Positions 5,225-20,935 of a stretch of 28,912 bases of DNA are shown in pieces (position 1 is the first letter of the stretch; each line of letters begins with the position of its first letter). Below the pieces are notes generated by a model. The model was not told the DNA's origin. It worked only from the letters and a program-made list of their open reading frames with translations, and ran no database searches. The stretch lies in the UHGV virus genome UHGV-1359478; one strand, given 5' to 3'. Position numbers and translations under genes: made by a program. Origin of the DNA: a virus.

Positions 5225-5246
5225 GTATCCTCCGGGATTAGGCAAT

Positions 5247-6231: not shown

Positions 6232-7650
6232 CTACGCCCCTGTTACGATCACGCCATCCGACGCGATATAAAAATAACTGAACTTATCGCCGCTGATGAT
6301 ATTCGTCCCGGCATCCGGTGGCGTTATCACACCATTGATGGTGACCACGACGTTTAAAGTGCTGATCAGCCCCATGTCGATTGTCGAGTTAATCGCCTGT
6401 AAGAATGCGTCTTTCAGGTTGTTAACGTTCAGCGGTTTCCCGGCGAATATGCCGTTCACATACTGAATCGTAGGAGCCGAGACCAGAGAGGCGACCGTCG
6501 CATCAGTCAGGTAGTTAACACTTTCGGTCCCCCACTGATACGTCACAGTGACCCGCTGCAGCAATGGCGTCACGAACGGGATCACGTAGTTATCAGGCCA
6601 GTCATTCACCGTCACGGTATTGTTTCTGACGTTCGGTGTCACCTCGCCGCCGCCTCCCCAGGTCCCGGATGAAGTGGTATCAATCCCGATGGAAAAAGTG
6701 TGAGGAGACAGTACCGTCACGGTCAGAGGAACGTCATTAATACCCGTCATCCCGGTAACGCCAGTGATCCGGATAACCTGGCCGTCAGTGTAGCCATGAG
6801 TCAGGTCTGTGCTGACGACGCCAGGATTTGCATTCGTGATCCCAGTTACATTCAGTGAACACCCTTTCAGCCGGCTGATATCCCCCGCAGACTTATAGAG
6901 CGCGCCAGCAATATCGTAAATATCACCGCCGGCGCACATGACTATCCACTTATCCCCGTCCTGAATGACAGAAACCAGGCGCGCCTGCACGTTATCAAGG
7001 CTGGTGAGATATTGCCGGATAAATCCAGGATATCCCTGAACGGTGGCCATCTGCGCCTGCCATACGCGATCACGAAACTGATAGTTCGTTTCCGGGTCAG
7101 CACCAGGAGTGCCGGCGATCGGGTTGGTGCAGGTAATGGTTACGTCAGACGGTAGACTGGATATGATCTGGTTAACCGTATTTACCGGAACCGCCCAGGT
7201 CCCGGTCTCTGTTCCCTCGCATGATACGCTGGCAGACACTCCTGACGACGAGATTATCGTCGCATCACTGACTGAATAGGTATAGGTCCCATCAGAAACA
7301 ATAAACCCCTGTGGGATAACAAATCCCGCGGGGCCGGAAAACTGAACCGGGACTGTTGTTGTGCCAGCCGTTTTCTGCCCAGGAATACCAGCCTGCTGTG
7401 CGAGAAGCTCCAGCATGGCCAGGTTAGCCTTTAGTGGCCCCACCGAGTTAATCAGGTCAACCCTTGCTTGATCACAAACGATGAGCGCGCCGACATCGGT
7501 ACTGGCCACGTCCTCAATCAGAGATCCAGGCAAATCAGTTGTGAGTCCCGGAGATAGCGCAACTGCCTGAGAAACGAGCTGTGCTCTTAGCTCTTCCGGC
7601 GTCAGAGGAACCGGGCCTGCTGACGTATAGCTGACTGGTAAATCGCTCAT
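6232..7650 (-). CDS. Baseplate wedge protein (J-like) carrying an inserted ~60-aa module
   Basis: 472-aa ORF in the baseplate block. Contains HGYTDGQVIRITGV...TFSIG, a module also seen in two other virion proteins. Confidence 0.5.
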   Translation of the reverse strand: MSDLPVSYTSAGPVPLTPEELRAQLVSQAVALSPGLTTDLPGSLIEDVASTDVGALIVCDQARVDLINSVGPLKANLAMLELLAQQAGIPGQKTAGTTTVPVQFSGPAGFVIPQGFIVSDGTYTYSVSDATIISSSGVSASVSCEGTETGTWAVPVNTVNQIISSLPSDVTITCTNPIAGTPGADPETNYQFRDRVWQAQMATVQGYPGFIRQYLTSLDNVQARLVSVIQDGDKWIVMCAGGDIYDIAGALYKSAGDISRLKGCSLNVTGITNANPGVVSTDLTHGYTDGQVIRITGVTGMTGINDVPLTVTVLSPHTFSIGIDTTSSGTWGGGGEVTPNVRNNTVTVNDWPDNYVIPFVTPLLQRVTVTYQWGTESVNYLTDATVASLVSAPTIQYVNGIFAGKPLNVNNLKDAFLQAINSTIDMGLISTLNVVVTINGVITPPDAGTNIISGDKFSYFYIASDGVIVTGA

Positions 7651-7979
7651 ACGGCCACCTGTGTAATTATTTTTGAACCTGCGTTTGTGATTGCCGAGAT
7701 GTTATAAACAGGCGGGTCATCGCTGATCAGTGCAATCTGCAGCGAGGAAAAATACTGGCTGAACTGTTTTTGAATACGGTTTACGTAATACGTCGGCAGG
7801 ATTTGCTGGATCACCGACCCGGCGGCCGGTATTCCGTTGTTCGCATAAAAGGGTGACTCCTGCGGCGCCAGTTTCAGATTCTGGATCAGGGTGGTTAAAT
7901 ACACCAAGTCATTAAACCCATTTTCGTCGGTTTCCACCAGGACCCACTTCCCCTCAGAGTTTCGGCCATAGGTTCTCAC
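7647..7979 (-). CDS. Small baseplate protein (gp25/W-like by size and position)
   Basis: 110-aa ORF, translationally coupled (overlapping stop/start) with its neighbours. Confidence 0.45.
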   Translation of the reverse strand: MRTYGRNSEGKWVLVETDENGFNDLVYLTTLIQNLKLAPQESPFYANNGIPAAGSVIQQILPTYYVNRIQKQFSQYFSSLQIALISDDPPVYNISAITNAGSKIITQVAV

Positions 7980-8692
7980 TCGGTGATACTCCCGTTAAAC
8001 GTTGAAGTCGGCCCCCCGGTATCATTTCCATCGTTGCCGTTTGAATGTTCATGGCTGTTAAGCCAGGTCAGAAGCGACTGCCACCCGGCGTGCATGATTG
8101 CAGGGCTAGTACTGGCCACTGAATCCTGCAGGTGACCAGCCTGGCCTGAAAGGCTCCATTTGCTACCCGTCAGTGAGAAAACTGTCCCGCCAACGGTGAC
8201 GGTGAAGCTGTCAGGTGTGGAAATGGCGATGCTGTCAGGCTTCAGGAGAAACGTCGTGTTGCTGCCACTGTCGCGCAGCGTTACACCCTCCGGCCCGTAT
8301 ACCGTCACCACCTGTCCGTCGACACCCTGCCACTCGGTATTACTGATCGGCAAGAAAACGAGGGCGCTTAAGTTTGCTGGCGGAGTCATATCTGCAATGC
8401 CGCCTCCCTGACCGCTAACGCCGCCAATGTAAGTATCTGCGGGGATAACAATCCCCTTATCTCCCGGCTGCATAGGGTAACGAATATATTGAGGGCCAAA
8501 TAAGGGGATAGTCACTTGCGGCAAAACATATGGGATATCCCTTAGCTCGAAGGAGACGGTGATCATATTCCCAGTTTGCTTAACCACGCTCGCCGGAAGA
8601 ACTTTCCCTGATTTTTGAAGCGCATTTTCAATCTTTCTTTCAGTAAACCTGTTCATGCTTGAGGCAAAATTAAGCTTGTTGTCGATGCTCAT
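7976..8692 (-). CDS. Baseplate spike/hub candidate
   Basis: 238-aa ORF with a Gly-rich central segment and Ser/Thr-rich C-terminus; called from position in the baseplate block. Confidence 0.4.
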   Translation of the reverse strand: MSIDNKLNFASSMNRFTERKIENALQKSGKVLPASVVKQTGNMITVSFELRDIPYVLPQVTIPLFGPQYIRYPMQPGDKGIVIPADTYIGGVSGQGGGIADMTPPANLSALVFLPISNTEWQGVDGQVVTVYGPEGVTLRDSGSNTTFLLKPDSIAISTPDSFTVTVGGTVFSLTGSKWSLSGQAGHLQDSVASTSPAIMHAGWQSLLTWLNSHEHSNGNDGNDTGGPTSTFNGSITE

Positions 8693-9726
8693 GCACTACC
8701 TGCCTTAATGAAAGGGGAAGCCTCAATAATTGTTACCCATGCCTCTGCCGTTGGTTGCCTGCTATTCCCTAACAGGCGAACGGAGTTCACAATAAAGTCG
8801 CCAGTAAAGGCAGAGTCTTCTCGATACTGAGAGTACGAAGAGGCCTGTATCAACGGAGTGCTTTTTTTAGGCATCAGGATGTGATCGCCAACCTGAATAT
8901 CACCGCGCATTACGCACGCCATGCTGATTGTGTTAAATGCCACCCATGTCGGCTGCCCTATCAAATCCTTGAAATCTATTTGGGTTGGGCTGTTGCTTCT
9001 GGCTACGGCGCTGGAAACAGAAGTCTTATCCGGGTGGTTATCATAATCGTTATCCCATACCCGGATCTCATTACCATTCACTATTGCGATCTCTACACCA
9101 GAGTACCCGCTATCGCGAATTCTGGAACGTGAAAAAGCATTAAGGTCCTTGGCCAGGGTGACAATGTCATCACAAAACAGCCCCCGGTAATGATTAAGGA
9201 TTAGCCGGTCGCTTATGTTGATATTGAACGTATACCCTCTGATGTTCATAAAACACTGCGTGAGGGCTACAGAAAGCTTCTGCCCCTCCTTCCAGTCAAA
9301 GGTTAAAGGAAGGGGTACGGGTTTGTTATTTGGCACGTTCTGGACAGGACCAACCACGATTATGAAGTCAAGTCGTAACTCAATACCCTGCCAGTTACCA
9401 AAGACCTGATTTATCACGCCATCCAATACCAGTTTTGGTGCGGTAACCTTGCCAGCCAATGGCAGCCCGTCTTTCATCCCAAGGAATATTTTAATTTTTT
9501 TGCCAAAAAAATTCTGGCGAGCCTGCTGCATTTCTTTTGGGCCAATACCCCAGATGGTCAGGTGAGTTTCGCCCTGGGGAGTCGATTCACCGTACCTGAG
9601 GATATCAAACTCAATCATCAGGGCGCCGGGGTTGTAAACTCCGTTCTTATGGCTACTGTATTTTATCGTTCTTTCCGGAGAGGCACCTTCAGCAGGAATG
9701 GTTATCTCAATATCATAATATCTCAT
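8689..9726 (-). CDS. Baseplate/tail structural protein (hypothetical)
   Basis: 345-aa ORF, coupled to neighbours. Confidence 0.5.
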   Translation of the reverse strand: MRYYDIEITIPAEGASPERTIKYSSHKNGVYNPGALMIEFDILRYGESTPQGETHLTIWGIGPKEMQQARQNFFGKKIKIFLGMKDGLPLAGKVTAPKLVLDGVINQVFGNWQGIELRLDFIIVVGPVQNVPNNKPVPLPLTFDWKEGQKLSVALTQCFMNIRGYTFNINISDRLILNHYRGLFCDDIVTLAKDLNAFSRSRIRDSGYSGVEIAIVNGNEIRVWDNDYDNHPDKTSVSSAVARSNSPTQIDFKDLIGQPTWVAFNTISMACVMRGDIQVGDHILMPKKSTPLIQASSYSQYREDSAFTGDFIVNSVRLLGNSRQPTAEAWVTIIEASPFIKAGSA

Positions 9727-10001
9727 GAACTGTTTACCTCAATCAGTCCATTCTGTTCGCGCCAGTACATGGAGGACGAATTAAACACTCCGGAGATAAT
9801 ATTTATTCCACCGTTAAGCTCGGAGCCAACGAGCGGGGTATTTAGAATGGTATTCCCAGAGCCATCTGTAATGAGGACATACCACCTCAGCCCGGCAATG
9901 TTCCATTTAACCTGGCAGTTATAGACGGTACCATCAAGGATCGGTGTAAATGTCATGCTTTGACGATCATTGCCGGTAAACGGATAATTCTGGGTTGTCA
10001 T
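9723..10001 (-). CDS. Small tail protein (hypothetical)
   Basis: 92-aa ORF overlapping its neighbours by 4 nt. Confidence 0.45.
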   Translation of the reverse strand: MTTQNYPFTGNDRQSMTFTPILDGTVYNCQVKWNIAGLRWYVLITDGSGNTILNTPLVGSELNGGINIISGVFNSSSMYWREQNGLIEVNSS

Positions 10002-10708
10002 GGCCCTACCCCCAACTTACCCAATAGGCCGGTTATTGCTTCCGATACAGAGCTCCCGAGAGGCGTGTTGCCAAGAGCATTGGCGGTATTAGTCCAGGAT
10101 GGGTCGGTTACCATATCCCCGGCGCCAATCTTGTTTAAAAAATTGTTCACGGCCTGCTCTGCACCATTATCGGTTATCAGTGGCTGCTCGAAATCCCATA
10201 TCCATGAACGCTGTGGTAATGGATCGTTACCAGAGGTAATGTCCCTCACTACACGCAAAATGCAGTTGCTATAGATAACGGATGGGGTGGCGACGATAAA
10301 CGTGCCGCCTAAGTTAGAATGCGCCTGAAGGACAGACTGCAAAGCACTCATAGTGACGAGCTTTGTCATCGCCCCGGTGTTTTCATTGACCGGGGCCTCC
10401 ATTACCAACGAAACGCGCAAAGGCTGAGCAAGCAAGGCGTTCGCAGCTACTACCTGGTTGGCGAAAGGGTATCTGGCAATTTCATAATCAACCATTGTGG
10501 CGCCCTGAACCGGTCGCCAGTGGCAGAAATATTTATCCAGATCGGTTAGGTTTATGGCTCCTCCAAGCAGCCCCGTAACAAAGCTCGCGCTCTGTGTCAA
10601 AGCGACGATCGGGAGCATTCCTCCAGGAATGGCCTGCGCTATCCCTCCGCAAAGTATTACTGGGGATATTTCAAAACCCAGCTTATACATTTCACGTGTG
10701 AATCCCAT
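9998..10708 (-). CDS. Tail protein downstream of tape measure (hypothetical)
   Basis: 236-aa ORF whose start overlaps the tape-measure stop. Confidence 0.5.
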   Translation of the reverse strand: MGFTREMYKLGFEISPVILCGGIAQAIPGGMLPIVALTQSASFVTGLLGGAINLTDLDKYFCHWRPVQGATMVDYEIARYPFANQVVAANALLAQPLRVSLVMEAPVNENTGAMTKLVTMSALQSVLQAHSNLGGTFIVATPSVIYSNCILRVVRDITSGNDPLPQRSWIWDFEQPLITDNGAEQAVNNFLNKIGAGDMVTDPSWTNTANALGNTPLGSSVSEAITGLLGKLGVGP

Positions 10709-12525
10709 TACCTCGCCCCCAATTGCGCTGAAGTTACCACTGCATTCCCACCGGTATTGTTATAGATCTGAATGACTGTGCTCTCAGAAACTCTGCTACC
10801 AGCCCCTTCTTTTTGAGATATAGCAGAAATGAGTTTCGCGATAACCTGAGGATCATTGAGATTCAGTTTCTGATTCTCATTAAATCCAGTAGTTTTAACC
10901 ACATGCCGAATATACTCAGCGGTATTATTTTCCTTAGGAGGAGCCCATTTTCTTGCAATATCTCCTACCGTATTTATTCCTTTAGCGCCATACATTTGAA
11001 GTTGCTTTGTCGCCGCCAGTACGCCTTCATCCAGCGTTGGGAAGACGGCAAATTTACCGCTTCTCGTATTCTCGCTGCTGTATCCTTCAGCCCACCGCAG
11101 ATTTCCCGGATTATTAAATCGATCTGCAATAGTCCTGTTTCTGTCGGAAGTATTTGCAGGTGTGGGATCAACAGCTTTAACGGTTCCATCTTCAAAGAAG
11201 CGCCTAACACCCTTGAGCCAGCCCCATACATGCGGGTCATCATTGCTTCCAGGAGTATAGGATTTTCCCGTTTTCGGATCGATGATGGTGCTTGGGCTCA
11301 ACATCGTTGACCCGGATGATATATCCGCAGTAGAGATACTCGCTTTCCCTGTTACCCAATCAATAACCTTGCCAATTAGATTTCCCATTTTCTCTACTTT
11401 GTCCATAAAGTTGCTTACATCTGTGGAAAATTCAGGAGAAGCGAGGTAATTACCGAATCGCTCAATGCCGCCGGCAAGCGCATCAATCCACTTGCCGAGT
11501 TCGGGGGATTTCAGGACGGTATCGATCGCGCCTGACAGCGCATCAGACAGTTTTCTCAGTTGAGGTGTGAGAGGACCCAGGCCGCGCACAAACGTGTTTC
11601 TGATGCTCTGGCTGCTGTAATCGAGCTGGACGTTAAAATCCTGCCACTGACGCGCCTGCTGGTCGGTAATTTGCAACATACGCGCATCCTGCTGCGCGCG
11701 CTTCTCCATGGCGGTGATCTCCTCATCGCTCATGTTTTTGAAGCGGTTCAGGTCGTCCAGCGTAAAGAAGTTTGTCAGGCCGTGCGCCTGTGCGCCCTGC
11801 AGCGTGCTGCCGCTCTGCACGAAAATATCGCGCGCATTACGGATCATCTGCGGGAGCAGTTTGGCAGGGTCCTGGTCGGGATTGTTAATCCCCATCGCCT
11901 GAAACGTCCAGCGCTTAGACAGGTCCATCTGGGAATCGCGGATAGCGCCCAGCGTCCCCGCCGGATTACCCAGCGCTTTCTGGTAGTTTATGGCGGTGGA
12001 ATCAAGTGCGCCGATACTCGTCCCAAGCCCGAGAGAAGTAAACCGCTGGGCACCGGTGGTGGCAGCCAGGCGGTTGATGCCAAACAGGCCGCCAACGCCA
12101 AGGACGCCGGTAAATATCCCGACAATACCACCCCAGGACAGAAGGCTGGCCGTCGCTTCCTTGATATGCCCTGCCAGCGATTTAGCGTCTTTCGTCGCAT
12201 CGCTGAGGAAGCCCTTCGCAGATCGGGTGCTTTTGTTGAATTCGTCCTGCTTTTTCTTCGAGTCTTCCAGGTTGGTATTGAGCCGATCGATACCGCTGTT
12301 GATGGTCAGGATGGCCTCGGCCACGGCATTAAACTCCGCGCCTAACTCCTTCGCCTCACCTTTGGCTTTTTCGGTCTGCTTGCTGCTTTCACCAATACCA
12401 ACGGCAGCCACTCGCCAGGCTTCCGGTAAATCATCCAGCGCGCTCTGGTACTCGCGAAACCTTTCCATAAACGCGACAAACTTGTCGTCATTTACGTCAA
12501 TGTCGACGATCGACTTAGCTACCAT
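10708..12525 (-). CDS. Tail tape measure protein
   Basis: ~605 aa from ATG at 12525 (AAGAGG Shine-Dalgarno 8 nt upstream); the track ORF extends to 12591. Coiled-coil-like N-terminal half, Gly-rich hydrophobic segment LLSWGGIVGIFTGVLGVGGLFG, position after the chaperone. Confidence 0.7.
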   Translation of the reverse strand: MVAKSIVDIDVNDDKFVAFMERFREYQSALDDLPEAWRVAAVGIGESSKQTEKAKGEAKELGAEFNAVAEAILTINSGIDRLNTNLEDSKKKQDEFNKSTRSAKGFLSDATKDAKSLAGHIKEATASLLSWGGIVGIFTGVLGVGGLFGINRLAATTGAQRFTSLGLGTSIGALDSTAINYQKALGNPAGTLGAIRDSQMDLSKRWTFQAMGINNPDQDPAKLLPQMIRNARDIFVQSGSTLQGAQAHGLTNFFTLDDLNRFKNMSDEEITAMEKRAQQDARMLQITDQQARQWQDFNVQLDYSSQSIRNTFVRGLGPLTPQLRKLSDALSGAIDTVLKSPELGKWIDALAGGIERFGNYLASPEFSTDVSNFMDKVEKMGNLIGKVIDWVTGKASISTADISSGSTMLSPSTIIDPKTGKSYTPGSNDDPHVWGWLKGVRRFFEDGTVKAVDPTPANTSDRNRTIADRFNNPGNLRWAEGYSSENTRSGKFAVFPTLDEGVLAATKQLQMYGAKGINTVGDIARKWAPPKENNTAEYIRHVVKTTGFNENQKLNLNDPQVIAKLISAISQKEGAGSRVSESTVIQIYNNTGGNAVVTSAQLGAR

Positions 12526-12648
12526 TGAAGAAACCTCTTTCTTTGAGCGCGGCGAGTAGGTAGCGCTGCCGGTACTGCGCCGGGCTTGCATACTCCTCGC
12601 CGGTGATCTCCCTTATCACCTGCCAGAAACCCTCATTAGACGCCCAGT

Positions 12649-13221
12649 CTAAGAGGGTATAAATGACGTTTCCGGCTGGGCATTCTGGGTCGGGGTATCG
12701 GTATCCGGCTTCGACGTCTGCAACGAATCGCGGAACGCCGTACCGCTCGATGAGGTTAGTTGCCCATCGTACATTTTGATCACCGTTCCCACGGTCGGCG
12801 CGATCAGGTTTGCCTTCTGAATAGCAGAGGAAACCATAAAAAAAACCACTTCGCCTTCGACCTCGCGATACTCATCAGGGTCGATAATCCCCTGCTTGAA
12901 TGCCACCTCAAGAGGCGTGGTTTTCCACTGGCCGCCGACGTTATGGATAACGACCGTCAGTCGCTGAATTTCATCAACGATGTTCGGACCTGTCCGACCG
13001 TTATCGATTTCCGCTTTCAGACTCTGCCTCAGCATCATCGCGGCGATTCTGGCGGCGCCAAGACCACCCACCTGCGAGATGAATTTTGTGAACAGGTTCC
13101 CCAGCAGGATGCAGTGTTCTTCCACCACCTCATAGGGGAATGGCGTCACATGCAGGTATACGATCGAGCCGTCTTCGCGGGTAACGTTGGTGACCAGATT
13201 CAGTTTCTTGTCAATTTTCAT
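12649..13221 (-). CDS. Tail assembly chaperone candidate
   Basis: 190-aa ORF between the tube and tape measure genes; called from order only. Confidence 0.45.
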   Translation of the reverse strand: MKIDKKLNLVTNVTREDGSIVYLHVTPFPYEVVEEHCILLGNLFTKFISQVGGLGAARIAAMMLRQSLKAEIDNGRTGPNIVDEIQRLTVVIHNVGGQWKTTPLEVAFKQGIIDPDEYREVEGEVVFFMVSSAIQKANLIAPTVGTVIKMYDGQLTSSSGTAFRDSLQTSKPDTDTPTQNAQPETSFIPS

Positions 13222-13224
13222 GCA

Positions 13225-13662
13225 TTACACCCACATGTTGTCGTTGGTGACCATATAGCCGCTGATGGTTACCACAAAAGCCGGGTCCATCCCGCTGAAA
13301 GCCAGCTCGTTGAAGTTGACCAGATAGCAGTTGAGCAGCGTGATATTGCCGAACGTCGTTGCATCCGGCGTTACCACGATTTCACCCAGCGACGTGTCGG
13401 TTAAAAAGCGTTGCCGGTAGCTTTCGCCCAGCCCCTGAGTTTTCAGGAGATGCACGGTCAGCGTTACCTGCTGATACGGCGCCTGGCTGCCGACGGTTCC
13501 GGTCATCGTAGGGATGATGTCGGTCGCCGGGCCATCCGGACGCAGGCTAATGCCGTCCTTTGCCAGGTACGACGCCGAAACGTTCAGCGCCGGTGTGTCT
13601 GTGACGGAAAGAGCCCCGCGTACGCGGTTAAGGAAGCCCTGCGGTACTAATGGGTTCGCCAT
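13225..13662 (-). CDS. Tail tube protein candidate
   Basis: 145-aa ORF immediately downstream of the sheath-like gene. Confidence 0.5.
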   Translation of the reverse strand: MANPLVPQGFLNRVRGALSVTDTPALNVSASYLAKDGISLRPDGPATDIIPTMTGTVGSQAPYQQVTLTVHLLKTQGLGESYRQRFLTDTSLGEIVVTPDATTFGNITLLNCYLVNFNELAFSGMDPAFVVTISGYMVTNDNMWV

Positions 13663-13665
13663 TTT

Positions 13666-15060
13666 TTACGCCCCTACAAAGTTCGTTACGTTCACGTTAA
13701 ACGTGATGGATTCGAAGCCGCGGCGCGGCGTCATGACGGCGCTCAGCCCGTTATATTTGCCTTCCTGATAATCGGAGGGGTTCAGGCTGTTGTAGTTACT
13801 GAACGGCGCGGCGTTGATCACGGCGTTGCCGGCGTAAGTGCCTTTGTCATACTCGGTGTTGAAATCTTCCTGCGTCAGTTGCGTGTCGATGACGCGACCG
13901 AGGATCAGCCCGTAGCTGATGCCATTACGCAAGGTTTTCAGAGCACGACGCTGCAGGCGGTCAATGCCCTTCTGCTCGTAGTACAGCGGGTTAACGGTCG
14001 TGTTGGAGCCGTTGATGATTTCATTCGCCAGGTCGAGCTCAAGGTTGATCGCCGTCCACGCCACCGAATACCAGTAGTTGAACGGGTTACCATCGAGCAT
14101 GCGGCCGGTGAACAGCACTTTATTGCTGAGTCCACCTTCGGCGCCGGTGCCGATGTAGTTGATGTTGCTGTCCTGAAGCGATTTCAGCAGTGCGCTGTTG
14201 CCTTCCAGCGGGTACTCAGTCAGGCCGTACATAAAGCGGTACGACATCGGCGGCACCATGTTGCTCGACCCCGGGTCGTTTGCCAGGGACGACTGGAACG
14301 GGCCGGCCATGGAAAACTCGCTCGCCGGAATATCCGGAGCCTCGACGCCGGCAAAGACAGTTTTGTTTTTCGTCGCGACCCAATCCTGATAGGTCGCGAT
14401 CGTTGTGGTGACAAAGAAGTAAACCAGACTTCCCGGCGAAGTATAGAGGCTGGTCAGGGTTTTAAATTCATCGACCGAATCCCATTCGCGCGGCACCAGA
14501 TAGGAGAAAAACTTCTGGTAGGTGTTACCCAGGGAGACGTCTTCAGCAATGAAGGTTGTCAGCGCTGCGACAGCTGCCTCCATGGACACATCGCCCAGTT
14601 CCAGCACATAAACAGCCCGCGTTTTACCCTGGGCCCAGAACGAAGTATTCATCTGGGAAATTTCGGTCTGCACTACCGTTTTTACCGTTCCCATTGCCGT
14701 TGCGGTTCCTGGGTTGGTCGTCAGCGGATAGGTGAAGGTGTTGGCTCCTGTCACCGTAGCGGTATAGGCGCCATTGTACCCCGCCGGAGTCGCGCCGGAG
14801 ATGATCACCGGGACCTGCGACCCGTTAGTCCATCCGTGAGCGGCAGCCAGCGTGACGGTTACCACGCCAGTAGCCCAGGCGAGCGTCGAGATGGTTTTCT
14901 CCGGTGCAAGGATGTCGGCCAGGTCGGTTTCACTGGTCAGCAGCTGATATTCACCGGCATTCAGCGTCGTGCCGCCCATAGAAATCATCGCCCCGGACTT
15001 TAACAACTGCGAGGGCTTCGGCGGATTCGTCACCGACACGTTAATATTAACAATTGCCAT
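13666..15060 (-). CDS. Tail sheath protein candidate, carrying the shared ~60-aa module near its N-terminus
   Basis: 464-aa ORF preceding the tube/chaperone/tape-measure order typical of contractile tails. Module HGWTNGSQVPVIISGATPAGYNG...TFTY at aa ~58-130. Confidence 0.5.
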   Translation of the reverse strand: MAIVNINVSVTNPPKPSQLLKSGAMISMGGTTLNAGEYQLLTSETDLADILAPEKTISTLAWATGVVTVTLAAAHGWTNGSQVPVIISGATPAGYNGAYTATVTGANTFTYPLTTNPGTATAMGTVKTVVQTEISQMNTSFWAQGKTRAVYVLELGDVSMEAAVAALTTFIAEDVSLGNTYQKFFSYLVPREWDSVDEFKTLTSLYTSPGSLVYFFVTTTIATYQDWVATKNKTVFAGVEAPDIPASEFSMAGPFQSSLANDPGSSNMVPPMSYRFMYGLTEYPLEGNSALLKSLQDSNINYIGTGAEGGLSNKVLFTGRMLDGNPFNYWYSVAWTAINLELDLANEIINGSNTTVNPLYYEQKGIDRLQRRALKTLRNGISYGLILGRVIDTQLTQEDFNTEYDKGTYAGNAVINAAPFSNYNSLNPSDYQEGKYNGLSAVMTPRRGFESITFNVNVTNFVGA

Positions 15061-15064
15061 TTAC

Positions 15065-16003
15065 TTATTTCTCCGGGTCAATGGACGGAATTGCAGACGT
15101 GATCAACTGGCGCGCTAAATTACGCATCCGTTGCTGGTAGTAATTGATTTTGAATTTGATGGTCTTACGCATGGCAATGATGTTGAGCTCGTTCTGAGTG
15201 ACTCGCTCATCCTGCACGACGGGAATATTCATGATCCCCATCTCCGGGGCATCGCCGGTCGTGTAGTCCTGCACATACCGCACAAAGTCTTCAATGCTGG
15301 CGTTACGCAGGCCGGTGACCGAAAGCGTCACATCTTCCGATACCAGCTGATACTGGTTTTGCTTCTCGTCCAGATAGAAAGCGCCGGCGATCGGTGACGT
15401 GTTACTGCATTTCACCGTCGCATAGGGCGGAGAAAGGTTCTGCGTTGAGAGCATCGCCGGGAACATCGGCATGTACTGATTCAGTGCCAACCAGATCGGC
15501 AACGAGCTCGACACCACTACGTCAGAGAGGTCTATGTCATCCGCAGAGTTGATGATCTGCGACCGCATGTGCGGGAAAATTGCCTCTCCGGTGTAGTGGT
15601 ACAGGTTCGCCGGCTCATTCAGCCCGGTACGCCGGGAGAACGAGAACTGAACGCCAAAAAACTCGCCGATGTACAGCACCTCTGACCCGATGTCGTTAAA
15701 CGGGTCGATGTCCGCCTGTGCGGTGAACGTCACCACGTTGCGATCGTAAAGTTGCTCGTCGTCCTGAATGGTTTCTGTCGTCAGGTGCAAATAACCTTTC
15801 ACATCCACCGTATCCGGCTCATTGTTCGGATCGTCAGACAGGACCGAGGCTTTCACCCAGAACACGAAGCCATCGAGCGGAAGCACCTTTCTGATGTACT
15901 TCGTGAACGTGACCACCTGGAACCGGCTCAGATCATCCAGCCCCTGCGTCAGGGTAGCGTTAAGCTCGGTTTTGGCGTTCTGTAACTCACTCAGGGAAGG
16001 CAT
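15065..16003 (-). CDS. Head-tail joining / tail completion protein (hypothetical)
   Basis: 312-aa ORF between the capsid and sheath blocks. Confidence 0.45.
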   Translation of the reverse strand: MPSLSELQNAKTELNATLTQGLDDLSRFQVVTFTKYIRKVLPLDGFVFWVKASVLSDDPNNEPDTVDVKGYLHLTTETIQDDEQLYDRNVVTFTAQADIDPFNDIGSEVLYIGEFFGVQFSFSRRTGLNEPANLYHYTGEAIFPHMRSQIINSADDIDLSDVVVSSSLPIWLALNQYMPMFPAMLSTQNLSPPYATVKCSNTSPIAGAFYLDEKQNQYQLVSEDVTLSVTGLRNASIEDFVRYVQDYTTGDAPEMGIMNIPVVQDERVTQNELNIIAMRKTIKFKINYYQQRMRNLARQLITSAIPSIDPEK

Positions 16004-16433
16004 TCATCACCCCGCTTACCCAGGCGCGCATAGCTGCCTGATAGGTTCCTGTGTCAATGAACGAAGGGCGCGGCGGCCCCTTTTTGCCTTTAAAGCGCTT
16101 CGATATACCCTCAAGCGCGCGGCGCGTTGGAACACCAGGGAGGCCGTTCATCTCGGTGTTATCGAGGAAGCCGACAAAGAGATCGTGAACTTTGGACATT
16201 GACTCAGCGAGCGGGTCTTTTGCCGGCGGCGCGCCAGCGAACATGTTTTCAAGCGCTGCGGCCAGGTCTTTGCTCATCAGCTCAGCGATGTCGTTCCCGT
16301 AGCGGTCAAAGAACGTCTGCATAATCTGATACCTCGCTTCCAGCTCTTCCGCTACGCTCCCCGTCGTGGTGTCCTCGTCCTCGTAGGGGATATCGATAAC
16401 GCCCAGATGAAAGGTGATCATGACAAGCCCCAC
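15987..16433 (-). CDS. Head-tail connector protein (hypothetical)
   Basis: 148-aa ORF, overlapping coupling with neighbours. Confidence 0.45.
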   Translation of the reverse strand: MGLVMITFHLGVIDIPYEDEDTTTGSVAEELEARYQIMQTFFDRYGNDIAELMSKDLAAALENMFAGAPPAKDPLAESMSKVHDLFVGFLDNTEMNGLPGVPTRRALEGISKRFKGKKGPPRPSFIDTGTYQAAMRAWVSGVMNAFPE

Positions 16434-16846
16434 AGGCTACCGAACTGCTGAGCGATCATCAGGTAGCGACGGCCCCACGGGTCCTGGAGCATCTGCAGAT
16501 CTGCCAGCGACAGGTCTTTGAAGAAATCAGGGACCAGGCGCTGTGCGCTGGTAGAGTTATCCCCGGCTCCCGTGATAACCCCGGCTTTGAAGTCATTCAG
16601 CCCATATTGTTTACGGAACTCAGCAAACACAGCCTCTGTCCCGTAATTGATGAGAAACGATGCCCCAAGGTTATAAACCGCGATGCTGTACATGTTAGGC
16701 ATAACGCACGCGATGTCCGGGTTAACCCATTCAATGGCGCCGCCATAGGCGAGAGAAAAAGACGGCGAGTCGTCGGGAACCTTGTCGGGGGTGATTCCCA
16801 TATCAGATCGAACGAATTCGATGAATCCCGACAGACTGGTGGTCAT
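16418..16846 (-). CDS. Head-tail connector protein (hypothetical)
   Basis: 142-aa ORF. Confidence 0.45.
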   Translation of the reverse strand: MTTSLSGFIEFVRSDMGITPDKVPDDSPSFSLAYGGAIEWVNPDIACVMPNMYSIAVYNLGASFLINYGTEAVFAEFRKQYGLNDFKAGVITGAGDNSTSAQRLVPDFFKDLSLADLQMLQDPWGRRYLMIAQQFGSLWGLS

Positions 16847-17325
16847 TTCTTCTTGCTCCCGGCTTTCGGCGTGACAATTTTTTCGTTGATGGTCGGGTCG
16901 TCTGAATGGTCATCGCGCCCCTTGGCCTGCTCTGCGCTGAATTCCATGTCACCTTCGTAGCCGATACCGCTTTCGCGCAGTGTGTTATCCAGCGCGGCGA
17001 CGGATGCCTGCCGGCGGTTATGAGCCCCGCGGGTCAGATGACCATCGTTATCGCGAATGGTTTTCTCAATAACGCTGGCGGAAACGGGTTTGTTGATGCT
17101 GTAGCACAGGCCGACAAATGCCTGGCTCTGGTCGATTTTGGTTGAGTCAACCAGACCGTAAACCTGATGATGCTGAATAACCGCTTCGACTTCTTCGGTC
17201 GAGCCATCCAGAACCAGCATCTGTGAGCCGTGCTCAATGGGGATCTGGCGAAGGCGCCCGGTTTCCAGCTGGCGGAAAGTGAAGATGTGGCGCTGCTTGG
17301 TAGTGTTGGCGATGTACAGTTTCAT
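16843..17325 (-). CDS. Head completion protein (hypothetical)
   Basis: 160-aa ORF following the capsid terminator; Shine-Dalgarno GAAGGG upstream of ATG. Confidence 0.45.
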   Translation of the reverse strand: MKLYIANTTKQRHIFTFRQLETGRLRQIPIEHGSQMLVLDGSTEEVEAVIQHHQVYGLVDSTKIDQSQAFVGLCYSINKPVSASVIEKTIRDNDGHLTRGAHNRRQASVAALDNTLRESGIGYEGDMEFSAEQAKGRDDHSDDPTINEKIVTPKAGSKKK

Positions 17326-17339
17326 TGTTTACCCTTCGT

Positions 17340-17373
17340 AAAAAAGCCCCTGCACAGCGAACCATGCAGAGGC
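17340..17373 (-). terminator. Strong rho-independent terminator downstream of the major capsid gene
   Basis: Minus strand GCCTCTGCAT-GGTTCGCT-GTGCAGGGGC followed by TTTTTT: a 10-bp GC-rich stem with two G-U pairs. Confidence 0.6.
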
Positions 17374-17397
17374 TTAAGCACTTCTCAATTTCGAGTT

Positions 17398-18429
17398 TTA
17401 GTCGCTGTATTTCATCGACAGGATGGTGATAGCTTCCGGACGGACTGCCCAGCCAGCCGTAGAGCGCATTTCTGACAGCACGTCGATAGCGCCCCCGGGG
17501 ATTGGCGTCGGGATTTCCATCGGTGCCGCCATGTCGGTGAACATCAGGGCGTTCGCCGCCAGAGACGGGCTCAGTTTGGCGAATTCGTTGGTGTTCACGG
17601 TGGAGTTGGCCATCGGCACTTCCACTTCCGGGACGGTGATAACCACCGCGTCAGTACCGCCGGCACCGGCGCCGATCAGCGTGTCGTCGTACACCCAGTC
17701 AACCTGAACATTCGCGCCACGGAGAATCTCTTTCACGGTGCCGCCGACGGTATCAGTACCGCCGCCAGGACGCTGATAAGATGTCAGCTGAACGATCTGC
17801 TGAATCTCCATCGCGCCCAGCACTCGCTGCGGACCGAGGATAACAACACGCTGCTGGCGACCCAGTTGCATGGTGCGGGTCAGCGCGGCCTGTACATGGC
17901 CCAGCAGATAGACAGCCATCTGTCCATGGTCGTAGGTCAGCACAGTGGTGTTGCTGTTGCTGTCCGGCGGCAGGGTTTCGGTGGTCGCGCCTGCGGTGTT
18001 CAGCAGACCTTCGCCGCCTGCCGGGTTCATGCCGTACAGCAGCGCAGAACGCAACTGCTGGAAGATGCCCTGACGCATGCCGAGACGCTGAGCTTCTGGC
18101 AGAGCCACGTTCCAGTTACCGGCCGCCGCGGTGTCGTGGTGATCGTAGATACCACGGCAGCGGAACAGGTAGGTTGGAGTGGAGATCATGCGCGCCTCGA
18201 GCGCCACGCTCGGCAGCTGGTTGGCGTTGCCGGACTGGCTGGAGGTTACCTGGGTACGAATATCCAGGCGGCGCATATAAACGTACTGGTCGCCTACGCC
18301 AAGGCGGACCTGCGGGTTACCGCTGGCGATGGTTTCGAACGCACCGGACGCCTGCTGGTAACCAATGATCAACTCCGGCGCAATATACGACGGGTTGACG
18401 ATGGTGTAGCTGGGGGTAATTGCAGCCAT
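17398..18429 (-). CDS. Major capsid protein candidate
   Basis: 343-aa ORF downstream of the protease/scaffold gene, followed by a strong terminator (typical of highly expressed capsid genes). Confidence 0.55.
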   Translation of the reverse strand: MAAITPSYTIVNPSYIAPELIIGYQQASGAFETIASGNPQVRLGVGDQYVYMRRLDIRTQVTSSQSGNANQLPSVALEARMISTPTYLFRCRGIYDHHDTAAAGNWNVALPEAQRLGMRQGIFQQLRSALLYGMNPAGGEGLLNTAGATTETLPPDSNSNTTVLTYDHGQMAVYLLGHVQAALTRTMQLGRQQRVVILGPQRVLGAMEIQQIVQLTSYQRPGGGTDTVGGTVKEILRGANVQVDWVYDDTLIGAGAGGTDAVVITVPEVEVPMANSTVNTNEFAKLSPSLAANALMFTDMAAPMEIPTPIPGGAIDVLSEMRSTAGWAVRPEAITILSMKYSD

Positions 18430-18442
18430 TTAAAGCTCCCGA

Positions 18443-19303
18443 TTAAAGTAAGACCAGCGCGCAGCTGTCGGTGTTGTTCCAGGTAAGGAAGCCCGTAGCG
18501 CTGTCATAGCTGACAGTTTTAGAGTTCCCACTCTCGATGGAGATGACTTTCACTGGCAGGGTGATGTCTGCCTGAGCAACAGCGCCGATAGTGCCCTGCG
18601 TGGTCGCGGAGCCGCCCGGCGCGCTGGCAGGCGCATAGGTGAAGGTTGTCGTACTCGGTACGCTCAGCACAACGACGGTGCCGTTATAGGCAGTCGGAGC
18701 TACGCCGCTGATCTTCACGTACTGGCCTGCAGTCAGACCATGTGCAGAGGCAGTGGTGGCGGTGGCCACGCCGTTCGAGTAGGTAACAGCGGTCGTGTCA
18801 ATGTCAGCACCGGCAAAAGCCGCCGCGGCTGCGGTGGTCACCTGGTTATTGACGAAGTCCCACGCCAGCGGCGTTTTCACCGATGCGCCAGCGGTTCCGA
18901 GCGCTACCACCTGCGCTGAAGCTTTCAGCGGAACGCGCATGTTGGATCCAAGGCGGTAGAATGAAACGCTCATGCCGGACGCATACAGCGGAACCGGTGA
19001 TTGCGGAGTGGTAAGGCCGTTGTGGGCCTGGTTGAAGACGGTGAAGCCTTCGAGTTCAGCCAGTGACACAGCGCGACGAATAGTCGACCCGCGAGGACTG
19101 GAGTTCACGCCGGGCAGCAACTCGGCAACCGGCAGGCCACCCCACAGCGGTTTGGTTTCGGTGGCGGCGACAGTGCCGGACGCCAGGTTAAAGCGATTTG
19201 CCGGATCATCCAGAGCAACGCCCTGAATGAAGCCATCAGACTGCACACCGAAGGAACCAGCGGCATTCGTGGTCGCCATCGGGTTAAGAGATAAATTAGC
19301 CAT
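18443..19303 (-). CDS. Capsid-associated protein (possible decoration/cement protein) with the shared ~60-aa module
   Basis: 286-aa Ala/Thr/Gly-rich ORF between the scaffold and capsid genes. Module HGLTAGQYVKISGVAPTAYNGTVVVLSVPSTTTFTY. Confidence 0.4.
   Translation of the reverse strand: MANLSLNPMATTNAAGSFGVQSDGFIQGVALDDPANRFNLASGTVAATETKPLWGGLPVAELLPGVNSSPRGSTIRRAVSLAELEGFTVFNQAHNGLTTPQSPVPLYASGMSVSFYRLGSNMRVPLKASAQVVALGTAGASVKTPLAWDFVNNQVTTAAAAAFAGADIDTTAVTYSNGVATATTASAHGLTAGQYVKISGVAPTAYNGTVVVLSVPSTTTFTYAPASAPGGSATTQGTIGAVAQADITLPVKVISIESGNSKTVSYDSATGFLTWNNTDSCALVLL

Positions 19304-19318: not shown

Positions 19319-20935
<1,617 letters not shown>

Follow-up and report, generated by a model that had tools for sequence, protein, structure and literature searches.

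A six-stranded beta-barrel module as an optional insert in three virion proteins of a temperate myovirus

Ig-like decorations of phages are promiscuous on head, tail, and baseplate; they are dispensable for assembly, and weak adhesion has been proposed as their role. Such domains on phage virion proteins, among them T4 Hoc and the C-terminus of lambda gpV, were reportedly described by Fraser and colleagues in 2006.

A second small domain found on virions is the FCCH domain. The Phage_tail_3 (PF08813) tail tubes of siphoviruses (NBD2 gp39, MED16 gp13; T1, FCWL1, 9L0F, 9JLF) carry this six-stranded barrel on a virion lattice protein as an N-terminal fusion to the non-contractile tube, and on the solved tubes it faces outward (PMC13576161). 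A comparable small barrel lies inside a larger phage structural protein in the endosialidases of K1F/NF and phi92 (PF12195), and of the three sites at which K1F binds polysialic acid, one lies in this barrel (PMC12632334).

The window analysed here, 28,912 nucleotides of the virus genome UHGV-1359478, comes from a temperate phage of the vB_Kpn_Chronis/RothC group, a myovirus whose prophages reside in E. coli and Klebsiella; about 1% of complete E. coli genomes carry one. The same six-stranded barrel is found in the window, but whereas the T1-like tubes carry a terminal fusion, here there are internal inserts in the sheath, in a Baseplate_J protein, and in a cement-like protein, three per virion. 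The evolutionary pattern is that of the Ig-like decorations, although the module is a closed barrel of six strands, not an Ig sandwich, and is internal rather than C-terminal or added by frameshifting.

Three copies of one module

All three copies lie on the minus strand, at positions 6625–6855 (residues 266–342 of the 472-residue Baseplate_J protein), 14668–14901 (residues 54–131 of the 464-residue tail sheath), and 18569–18802 (residues 168–245 of the 286-residue head protein). The peptides quoted in the initial annotation, which had assigned the segments to virion genes, were located in the open reading frames 6232–7650, 13666–15060, and 18443–19303. Its ranges correspond to residues 268–339, 58–131, and 176–246 of the baseplate, sheath, and head proteins, respectively; the places are right, but the head-protein range omits the first strand, and the module, estimated there at about 60 residues, measures about 75–85 residues in all three copies. 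No fourth copy was found in the six frames of the window.

With compositional adjustment, BLASTP aligned the sheath and head-protein modules over 78 residues at 41% identity (E = 9e-10), and the baseplate and head-protein modules with E = 0.005; the baseplate and sheath modules were the weakest pair (E = 0.5). When local alignment scores were compared with those of 2000 composition-preserving shuffles per pair, the three pairs gave z values of 11.9, 6.9, and 4.0, with 0, 0, and 5 of the 2000 shuffles matching the observed score. The profiles of the baseplate-type and the sheath/head-type modules were aligned by hhalign with a probability of 92% and E = 5.4e-7. The similarity thus stays significant after compositional correction (BLASTP, 9e-10 and 0.005), with all pairs exceeding their shuffles, and BLASTP and hhalign together bear out the proposal of one small homologous domain common to three virion proteins. 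It should be noted that in a MAFFT alignment of the 78-residue segments the baseplate copy was misaligned in its second half, and that trimmed segments of 60 residues align properly.

At the DNA level, one 12-mer is all that the copies have in common, so that no trace of recent duplication or recombination was seen, and they are therefore old, not recent, duplicates. We regard the homology of the three segments, as copies of a single module, and the status of each as an optional insert as well established.

Fold of the module

The baseplate copy matched Pfam E1_FCCH (PF16190) with E = 4.2e-14 (52.8 bits, residues 275–338) in the whole protein and with E = 1.4e-15 (57.5 bits) as a segment alone, in both cases above the curated gathering score of 29.5 bits. 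The match of the head copy was weak and below this score (14.9 bits, E = 0.028), and nothing in Pfam matched the sheath copy. These two copies form a divergent subtype missed by E1_FCCH, and their tie to the baseplate type consists only of the hhalign value given above and the match of an eight-sequence profile to UBA6; Pfam is likewise blind to the QDWS baseplate variant and to the alternative inserts described below. In the PDB profile search, the eight-module profile matched the UBA6/UBA1 FCCH at about 9e-5, and the family profile of the baseplate protein reached the UBA6 FCCH domain through its module.

The AlphaFold models agree with these searches. The head-protein module is predicted to consist of six strands (168–176, 179–184, 195–199, 208–217, 220–223, and 238–240; pLDDT 81–95), and the sheath module of six strands between residues 55 and 128 (pLDDT 90–96), so that the structure-prediction check gave discrete six-strand units for both proteins. 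With Foldseek, the sheath model aligned with the mouse UBA1 FCCH (2v31) over 81 columns with an rmsd of 2.5 Å and 22% identity, and the head-protein model with 7sol_A (UBA6/UBA1 FCCH) over 80 columns with an rmsd of 2.2 Å; the tail-tube chains 9l0f and 9jlf were also among the matches of the latter model. The same model matched the endosialidases of K1F, NF, and phi92 with a probability of 1.0 and 18–22% identity over about 120 columns.

The relation to the endosialidases is seen in Pfam as well. The head copy gave the best End_beta_barrel (PF12195) match in the window (15.8 bits, E = 0.013), which is far under the gathering score of 35, so that the relation to the sialic-acid-binding barrel is remote; of 72 representatives carrying the module, 17 reached E ≤ 1e-3, the best value being 1.1e-7. 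Unlike the endosialidases, the window proteins have neither the sialidase propeller nor the stalk. The 'endosialidase' label carried by the head-protein orthologues of PdC23 and a Yersinia phage is an over-annotation.

No BIG, PKD, or FN3 profile of Pfam matched at E ≤ 1, and the only related signal was Invasin_D3 at 0.024 in two of the eight segments. The initial suggestion of an Ig-like module is therefore replaced by that of another fold, on which three kinds of search (Pfam, PDB profiles, and Foldseek) converge: the module is a six-stranded beta-barrel of the fold class of the E1 FCCH and phage endosialidase beta-barrel domains.

The most conserved positions of the module, the His of HG, the Asn of YNG, and the Phe of TFTY (89–93% across 739 copies), are also kept in the eukaryotic UBA6 FCCH in the alignment from the PDB profile search, which suggests that they determine the fold rather than form a phage-specific ligand site. 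The module is like the UBA1/UBA6 FCCH in sequence motif and fold (4e-14 and about 9e-5; rmsd 2.2–2.5 Å over about 80 residues), but the adenylation and catalytic-cysteine context of E1 is absent, and the barrel alone is common to both. ThiF/E1 domains were not found in the three host proteins by Pfam, PHROG, or Foldseek, and a link to ubiquitin-like conjugation, considered since FCCH is a domain of E1, was rejected because neither the window nor the module's partner domains offered support for it.

Host proteins and occurrence of the module among relatives

The sheath gene (13666–15060, minus strand), whose product had been described as sheath-like, encodes a tail sheath according to both PHROG (phrog_205, E = 8e-52) and Foldseek. 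The whole model (pLDDT 84.9, pTM 0.85) had 29 top PDB matches, all of them phage, pyocin, or contractile-injection-system sheaths, with E down to 1.9e-11 and including the Bas63, Sf14, PhiTE, XM1, and E217 structures and the Lin1278 and DSY3957 sheath proteins; the PDB sequence-profile search with the sheath family gave no match. The product of 6232–7650 (minus strand), proposed to be baseplate wedge-like, is identified as such by Pfam Baseplate_J (PF04865, E = 6e-12, 45.8 bits vs. a gathering score of 21.1) and by phrog_6, a baseplate wedge subunit family (1.9e-24). Apart from UBA6, matched via the module, its family found only the diffocin protein TRI-2 among the PDB profiles, and weakly.

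The gene of the 286-residue protein (18443–19303, minus strand; phrog_6268) sits between two other head genes of the minus strand, one of which (19319–20932) encodes a NUDIX domain fused to a DUF2213 prohead-protease-like region (Pfam, 2.9e-16 and 1.8e-5, with PHROG head maturation protease families matching too), and the other (17398–18429) the major capsid protein (phrog_6671 and phrog_264, major head protein; Pfam Major_capside, weak, 9.7e-4), the PdC23 orthologue of which is annotated as major capsid protein. The two decoration genes of T1 are positioned alike. With Foldseek, the model matched 9kzj_I and 9kmg_b, the decoration/cement protein chains of T1 and FCWL1, with a probability of 1.0 but weak E values of 0.025–0.03 (TMt 0.55, 145 columns, and rmsd 4.0 Å for 9kmg_b; TMt 0.46 for 9kzj_I).

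No Pfam family, including PF22758 (Phage_cement), was matched at E ≤ 1 by the 131-member family of this protein; its core aligned with the T1 cement protein in hhalign with a probability of only 0.2%, and the PDB sequence-profile search with the family gave no match. With the window sequence as query, all matches of the protein search were near-identical proteins of E. coli and Klebsiella (92–99% identity), and the alignments for structure prediction were built from distant QDWS orthologue queries instead. Since the sequence searches were negative, the cement assignment rests on structure and gene position. We consider the protein a probable capsid cement/decoration protein on the basis of fold resemblance and gene position; its earlier description as capsid-associated is likewise no more than probable. 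A direct analogue of such an arrangement is T1 gp29, which combines a cement domain with a BIG2 display domain.

Comparison with orthologues shows that each of the three sites can be occupied or empty. The head-protein orthologues of Rac-SA53 (205 residues) and QDWS (198 residues), the QDWS sheath, and the Rac-SA53 Baseplate_J protein all have a clean gap in place of the module, whereas the QDWS Baseplate_J protein carries it. Among the 120 closely related sheath orthologues of the Burkholderia type listed, the module is missing in 93 (the 440–449-residue class) and is present at the same site in 19; it is missing in 112 of the 120 head-protein orthologues listed. The head/sheath/baseplate pattern is 1/1/1 in the lineage of the window, Chronis, the Yersinia phage, and PdC23, with all three copies kept from Klebsiella and E. 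coli through Yersinia and Pantoea phages, 0/1/0 in Rac-SA53, and 0/0/1 in QDWS. Gain or loss at each site is thus independent of the other two sites, and the module is dispensable for the folds of its host proteins. These clean collinear gaps, together with the discrete units of the AlphaFold models, agree with the earlier view of an independently folding insert outside the core folds.

The sites are not reserved for one insert. In the head-protein family, a divergent version of the module occurs at the same site (P0428, hhalign E = 3.4e-5), and for the insert of the P0479 type at this site hhalign gave no link to the module (probability 7%); the same loop of Burkholderia-type sheaths accepts an unrelated GSGYT-type repeat. 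Divergence rates of the module and the host proteins are similar and follow no consistent pattern, and there is therefore no sign of diversifying selection.

At a threshold of E ≤ 1e-3, 4107 representative clusters make up the module family. The 150 top-ranking proteins contain 739 copies, tandem arrays being common (up to 19 copies) and long arrays occurring in fibre-like giant proteins. Its partners are mostly phage tail and baseplate families, few of them non-phage, and include SPP1_Dit, Phage_tail_3 (tail tube), Baseplate_J, and fibres; the BFVD matches were baseplate J, wedge, fibre, tip attachment J, and Peptidase S74 proteins. The module is therefore widespread among phage structural proteins, as expected from the initially proposed spread by domain shuffling.

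Possible role of the barrels and alternative explanations

On balance, we lean slightly toward an explanation in which the barrels are optional decorations that give the particle weak binding to surface polysaccharide. Each barrel would be an optional insert in a loop of the cement-like head protein, the tail sheath, or the Baseplate_J wedge protein, and would project from the surface of the head, sheath, or baseplate in the same way as FCCH does on the solved T1-like tail tubes; outward exposure at the three sites, taken by itself, is likely. The barrels would be accessory, with the primary receptor-binding device lying elsewhere, and would provide the whole particle with weak, multivalent binding to capsule, O-antigen, or mucus glycans. 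Since the barrel of the K1F endosialidase has a site for polysialic acid (PMC12632334), glycan adhesion as such is plausible, but we would put it somewhat short of probable; this part of the explanation draws on the K1F barrel and on other phage decorations.

Several other explanations can be set against this one. It is scarcely credible that the likeness is an artefact of the composition of Thr/Ala/Gly/Val-rich strands or that three unrelated core folds each include one of the segments as an integral part: the segments are indeed rich in these residues and the baseplate–sheath BLASTP value is only 0.5, but the shuffles, the BLASTP and hhalign values of the other comparisons (9e-10 and 5e-7), the Pfam match above its curated threshold, the clean indels of the orthologues, and the discrete predicted domains refute both versions. 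A different role, in which the barrels reinforce the particle through lateral contacts of neighbouring subunits in the cement lattice, in the helix of the sheath, and in the baseplate and need no external ligand, is unlikely. Close orthologues assemble without the module (the sheaths and head proteins counted above and the Rac-SA53 baseplate protein), and lattice contacts make little sense for long tandem arrays in fibre-like giant proteins; on the other hand, the head-protein core resembles cement proteins, which stabilise, the conserved residues of the module appear structural, and the tail-tube papers on FCCH domains treat stability and mention neither adhesion nor carbohydrate.

It would be more surprising still if the barrels were largely neutral passengers, or a camouflage that changes surface antigenicity or hides conserved structural proteins from recognition by the host or the immune system, with no specific ligand, tolerated in permissive loops. 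The strong consensus of the module over thousands of clusters speaks for a functional, folded unit under selection, and the lineage of the window has retained its three copies across phages of several hosts, against which stand the patchy occurrence among close relatives, the unrelated inserts in the same loops, such as the GSGYT-type repeat of Burkholderia-type sheaths, and the like rates of evolution of module and host protein.

The favoured explanation of weak polysaccharide binding can be extended to the whole family, with the FCCH-type barrel, including the 'SG-x-x-P-x-x-YNGTY' subtype missed by Pfam, forming a large under-annotated family of phage glycan-binding domains, or phage lectins, placed in this gut-associated lineage on head, sheath, and baseplate at once. 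We regard this extension as doubtful. If true, it would mean weak multivalent adherence of the whole particle to capsule, O-antigen, and mucin, as a non-Ig counterpart of Hoc/BAM, and if the barrels bind glycans, they could be used to engineer adsorption or retention in mucus.

The case is one of fairly ordinary domain shuffling, since the barrel type is already known on the outside of other phage tails, and it leaves the current understanding of phage architecture unchanged. A non-Ig barrel, one subtype of which is poorly covered by Pfam, behaves like the classic Ig-like decorations in being optional, promiscuous, and often multicopy, and the module boundaries defined by the orthologues are ready sites for deletion or grafting. 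Three proteins gain a working annotation while related Klebsiella phages are being collected for therapy, and the 'endosialidase' label of the head protein in some phage records is corrected. In RefSeq, the seven genes under 13666–19303, the sheath and head-protein genes among them, are all entered as 'hypothetical protein'; the baseplate gene is already labelled 'putative baseplate J like family protein' in the Chronis GenBank record.

Homology and fold of the shared module

The three peptides lie in the reading frames at 6232–7650 (Baseplate_J wedge protein), 13666–15060 (tail sheath) and 18443–19303 (a 286-aa head protein), all on the minus strand; the coordinates given in the initial annotation fall within these frames, and the sheath and the Baseplate_J protein are firmly identified. 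In BLASTP with compositional adjustment, the sheath (14668–14901) and head (18569–18802) copies are 41% identical over 78 aa (E = 9e-10), and the baseplate copy (6625–6855) matches the head copy at E = 0.005 and the sheath copy at E = 0.5. When compared with 2000 composition-preserving shuffles, the three pairs had local alignment scores at z = 11.9, 6.9 and 4.0. A baseplate-type profile, built from the modules of the window, Pantoea phage PdC23 and the Shewanella phage vB_Sb_QDWS record (QDWS), aligned with the sheath/head-type profile in hhalign at 92% probability and E = 5.4e-7. These results confirm the shared module proposed in the initial annotation, with a length of 75–85 aa rather than ~60 aa. 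In sequence, the baseplate copy of QDWS (AGATPSAFNRTYTV) seems to lie between the two types. There is no fourth copy in any frame of the window, and no DNA-level similarity was found among the three copies.

The module is an FCCH/endosialidase-type beta-barrel. The baseplate copy matches Pfam E1_FCCH (PF16190) above the curated cut-off (E = 4e-14), the head copy gives only weak Pfam matches (End_beta_barrel, 0.013; E1_FCCH, 0.028), and the sheath copy gives none; among PDB sequences, an eight-module profile finds UBA6/UBA1 FCCH at ~9e-5. From 121 diverse sequences AlphaFold2 gave a confident sheath model (pLDDT 84.9, pTM 0.85), which contains a discrete six-strand unit at residues 55–128 (pLDDT 90–96). 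In Foldseek this model matches phage, pyocin and contractile-injection-system sheaths first (E down to 1.9e-11) and E1 enzymes next, with the isolated mouse UBA1 FCCH domain 2v31 aligned over 81 columns (rmsd 2.5 Å, 22% identity). The head-protein model (pLDDT 86.0, pTM 0.80) has six strands within residues 168–240 and matches UBA6/UBA1 FCCH (7sol_A; 80 columns, rmsd 2.2 Å), the K1F, NF and phi92 endosialidases (probability 1.0, 18–22% identity), and also T1 and FCWL1 tail tubes. No Ig-type family was matched by the module, so the Ig-like nature suggested at first gives way to these barrels.

The consensus reads T-x-T-T-x-x-A-H-G-[LF]-x-x-G-[QD]-x-V-x-I-x-G-A-x-P-x-x-Y-N-G-T-[FY]-x-[IV]...T-F-T-Y...P-G. 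Its His, Asn and Phe are conserved at 89–93%, and the same three positions are kept in UBA6, which argues that they are probably fold determinants and not a phage-specific ligand site.

Presence of the module among orthologues

The head-protein orthologues of E. coli phage Rac-SA53 (205 aa) and QDWS (198 aa) align on both flanks and lack window residues ~168–250. Residues ~275–342 of the Baseplate_J protein are absent from Rac-SA53 and present in QDWS; the Rac-SA53 sheath carries the module at a site identical to that in the window, and in the QDWS sheath it is missing, a second site carrying an unrelated repeat instead. Among the 120 sheath matches listed (59–94% identical to the QDWS sheath), 93 have no module (440–449 aa), 19 have it at residues 62–135 (515–519 aa) and five carry the other repeat four times instead (520–525 aa). 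Head-protein orthologues are shorter in 112 of 120 cases (110 of ~190–203 aa and two truncated); the remaining eight, of ~290 aa, have an insert at the window's module site. The insert of one orthologue, P0428, is related to the module but divergent (hhalign E = 3.4e-5); for that of another, P0479, hhalign established no link.

The head/sheath/baseplate pattern differs by lineage (1/1/1, 0/1/0 or 0/0/1): each of the three sites can have or lack the module irrespective of the other two, so it is not integral to the core folds. Collinear orthologues without the module at each site thus decide for an inserted domain, as was first supposed.

The other repeat (~40 aa) occupies a second insertion site in Burkholderia-type sheaths, namely that of QDWS (L006:13239–14561) and orthologues P0157, P0165, P0166, P0168 and P0179. 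It is a second decoration module of the sheath family, unrelated to the FCCH-type one, and has no Pfam match. Its sequence is GSGYTxAPxVTFSxP..GTTATGTA.I.NG.V, with two copies in 440-aa and four in 520-aa forms.

The head protein and the proposed role of the barrels

The 286-aa protein has no relative of known function at the sequence level. Its core matches 9kmg_b and 9kzj_I, the T1 and FCWL1 "decoration / cement protein II" chains, in Foldseek (TMt 0.55 and 0.46, probability 1.0, E = 0.025–0.03), and its gene lies exactly where T1 has two decoration genes, between the protease and major capsid genes. On the basis of core fold and gene position, it is probably a cement/decoration protein with a display barrel. 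The second T1 decoration protein, in which a cement and a BIG2 domain are fused, is a close architectural analogue. Orthologues in PdC23 (pdc_05, L002:16041–16913) and Yersinia phage vB_YenM_06.16-1 (OM046622) are called "endosialidase", an over-annotation, as the sialidase propeller is absent; the label evidently stems from the weak End_beta_barrel match of the inserted module.

Three virion proteins thus carry homologous, independently folding, optional barrels. These would point outward from the virion, by analogy with PF08813 tail tubes of solved structure, whose FCCH domains "orient toward the external surface" (PMC13576161). More tentatively, they might provide weak multivalent polysaccharide binding, because in the K1F endosialidase the barrel forms one of the three sites for polysialic acid and is a hotspot of host discrimination (PMC12632334) and because the module accumulates in fibre-like proteins and host-contact parts. 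Against such binding count the structural look of the conserved residues, the remoteness of the endosialidase link and divergence rates with no selection signal. We consider it unlikely that the barrels reinforce the lattice, and less likely still that they are neutral or camouflage inserts. The module-bearing loops also take unrelated repeats, as would be expected of permissive surface loops whether the barrels serve adhesion, reinforcement or camouflage or are neutral.

An exhaustive HMM search seeded with the three modules matched 4107 representative clusters, defined at 50% identity, with E ≤ 1e-3; for 558 the match is at ≤ 1e-10. The top 150 proteins, up to ~6500 aa long, contain 739 copies, with two or more in 149 and a maximum of 19 per protein. 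Among 72 small and mid-sized representatives, 50 match E1_FCCH and 17 End_beta_barrel; their partner families include SPP1_Dit, Phage_tail_3 and Baseplate_J, and a few non-phage ones, e.g., LTD, Glyco_hydro_64, Tad/TadE and VWA. BFVD matches fall in baseplate J, wedge, fibre, tip attachment J, FN3 and Peptidase S74 proteins, and the PHROG matches in the head protein agree with this picture. The occurrence of FCCH-type domains on phage tail tubes has been published before, and E1_FCCH is linked with phage proteins in Pfam too. Specific here are three copies within one virion, in sheath, Baseplate_J and cement-like proteins, the internal-insert architecture with well-defined boundaries, and a divergent subtype missed by Pfam. 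The value lies in annotation and in a handle for deletion or grafting; a phage structural biologist would not be surprised.

Genomic setting

The structural genes of a temperate myovirus make up the window, as a block lying entirely on the minus strand. PHROG and Pfam matches give the order terminase, portal, head-morphogenesis protein, NUDIX-DUF2213 protease fusion, 286-aa protein and major capsid protein, then four small genes, a 312-aa protein and the sheath, followed by the tape measure, which has a transglycosylase domain, by baseplate genes (hub and Baseplate_J among them) and by two fibre genes; tube and chaperone genes presumably lie between sheath and tape measure.

The 537-aa fusion (19319–20932, minus strand) has an N-terminal NUDIX domain (aa 9–112, Pfam 2.9e-16) joined to a DUF2213/head-maturation-protease-like region. 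It is unusual for a prohead protease or scaffold to carry a nucleotide-pyrophosphatase domain, and this one may be packaged into the head. The NUDIX region matches the PHROG "portal protein" family phrog_15528 (E = 8.8e-15), which suggests that NUDIX–portal fusions may exist elsewhere as well. The 627-aa tape-measure-like protein (10708–12591, minus strand) has a C-terminal lytic transglycosylase region: aa ~475–615 match phrog_873 (endolysin) as well as phrog_7182 (tail injection transglycosylase), and lytic transglycosylase is also the annotation of the Chronis orthologue. The two tail fibre or spike genes (349–1380 and 2339–5245, minus strand) share an N-terminal anchor region (49% identity, 134-column alignment, E = 2e-33) and diverge completely downstream; this suggests a common baseplate docking site, on which the products may be alternative or branched receptor-binding proteins.

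Klebsiella phage vB_Kpn_Chronis and phages RothC/RothD, a group assigned to a proposed gut-associated family (preprint), are ~96% identical to the window; Yersinia vB_YenM phages and PdC23 are remoter relatives. The 5.6-kb stretch 13666–19303 occurs in 49 of 5426 complete E. coli genomes, chromosomal in all, at ≥99% identity in 15 of the 49. All seven genes under it are "hypothetical protein" in RefSeq E. coli, including the sheath, major capsid and cement-like proteins.

Host labels look doubtful for the records of "Shewanella phage vB_Sb_QDWS", "Hujiaoplasma phage zrk29-1" and "Actinobacillus phage vB_Apl-pPE4" (OK094664, loci L004/L006; OP650936; PP818812, locus L007). The first two are 47,902 bp each, with proteins 93–100% identical to Burkholderia prophage proteins; the third is mostly collinear with E. 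coli phage Rac-SA53, with near-identical gene lengths.
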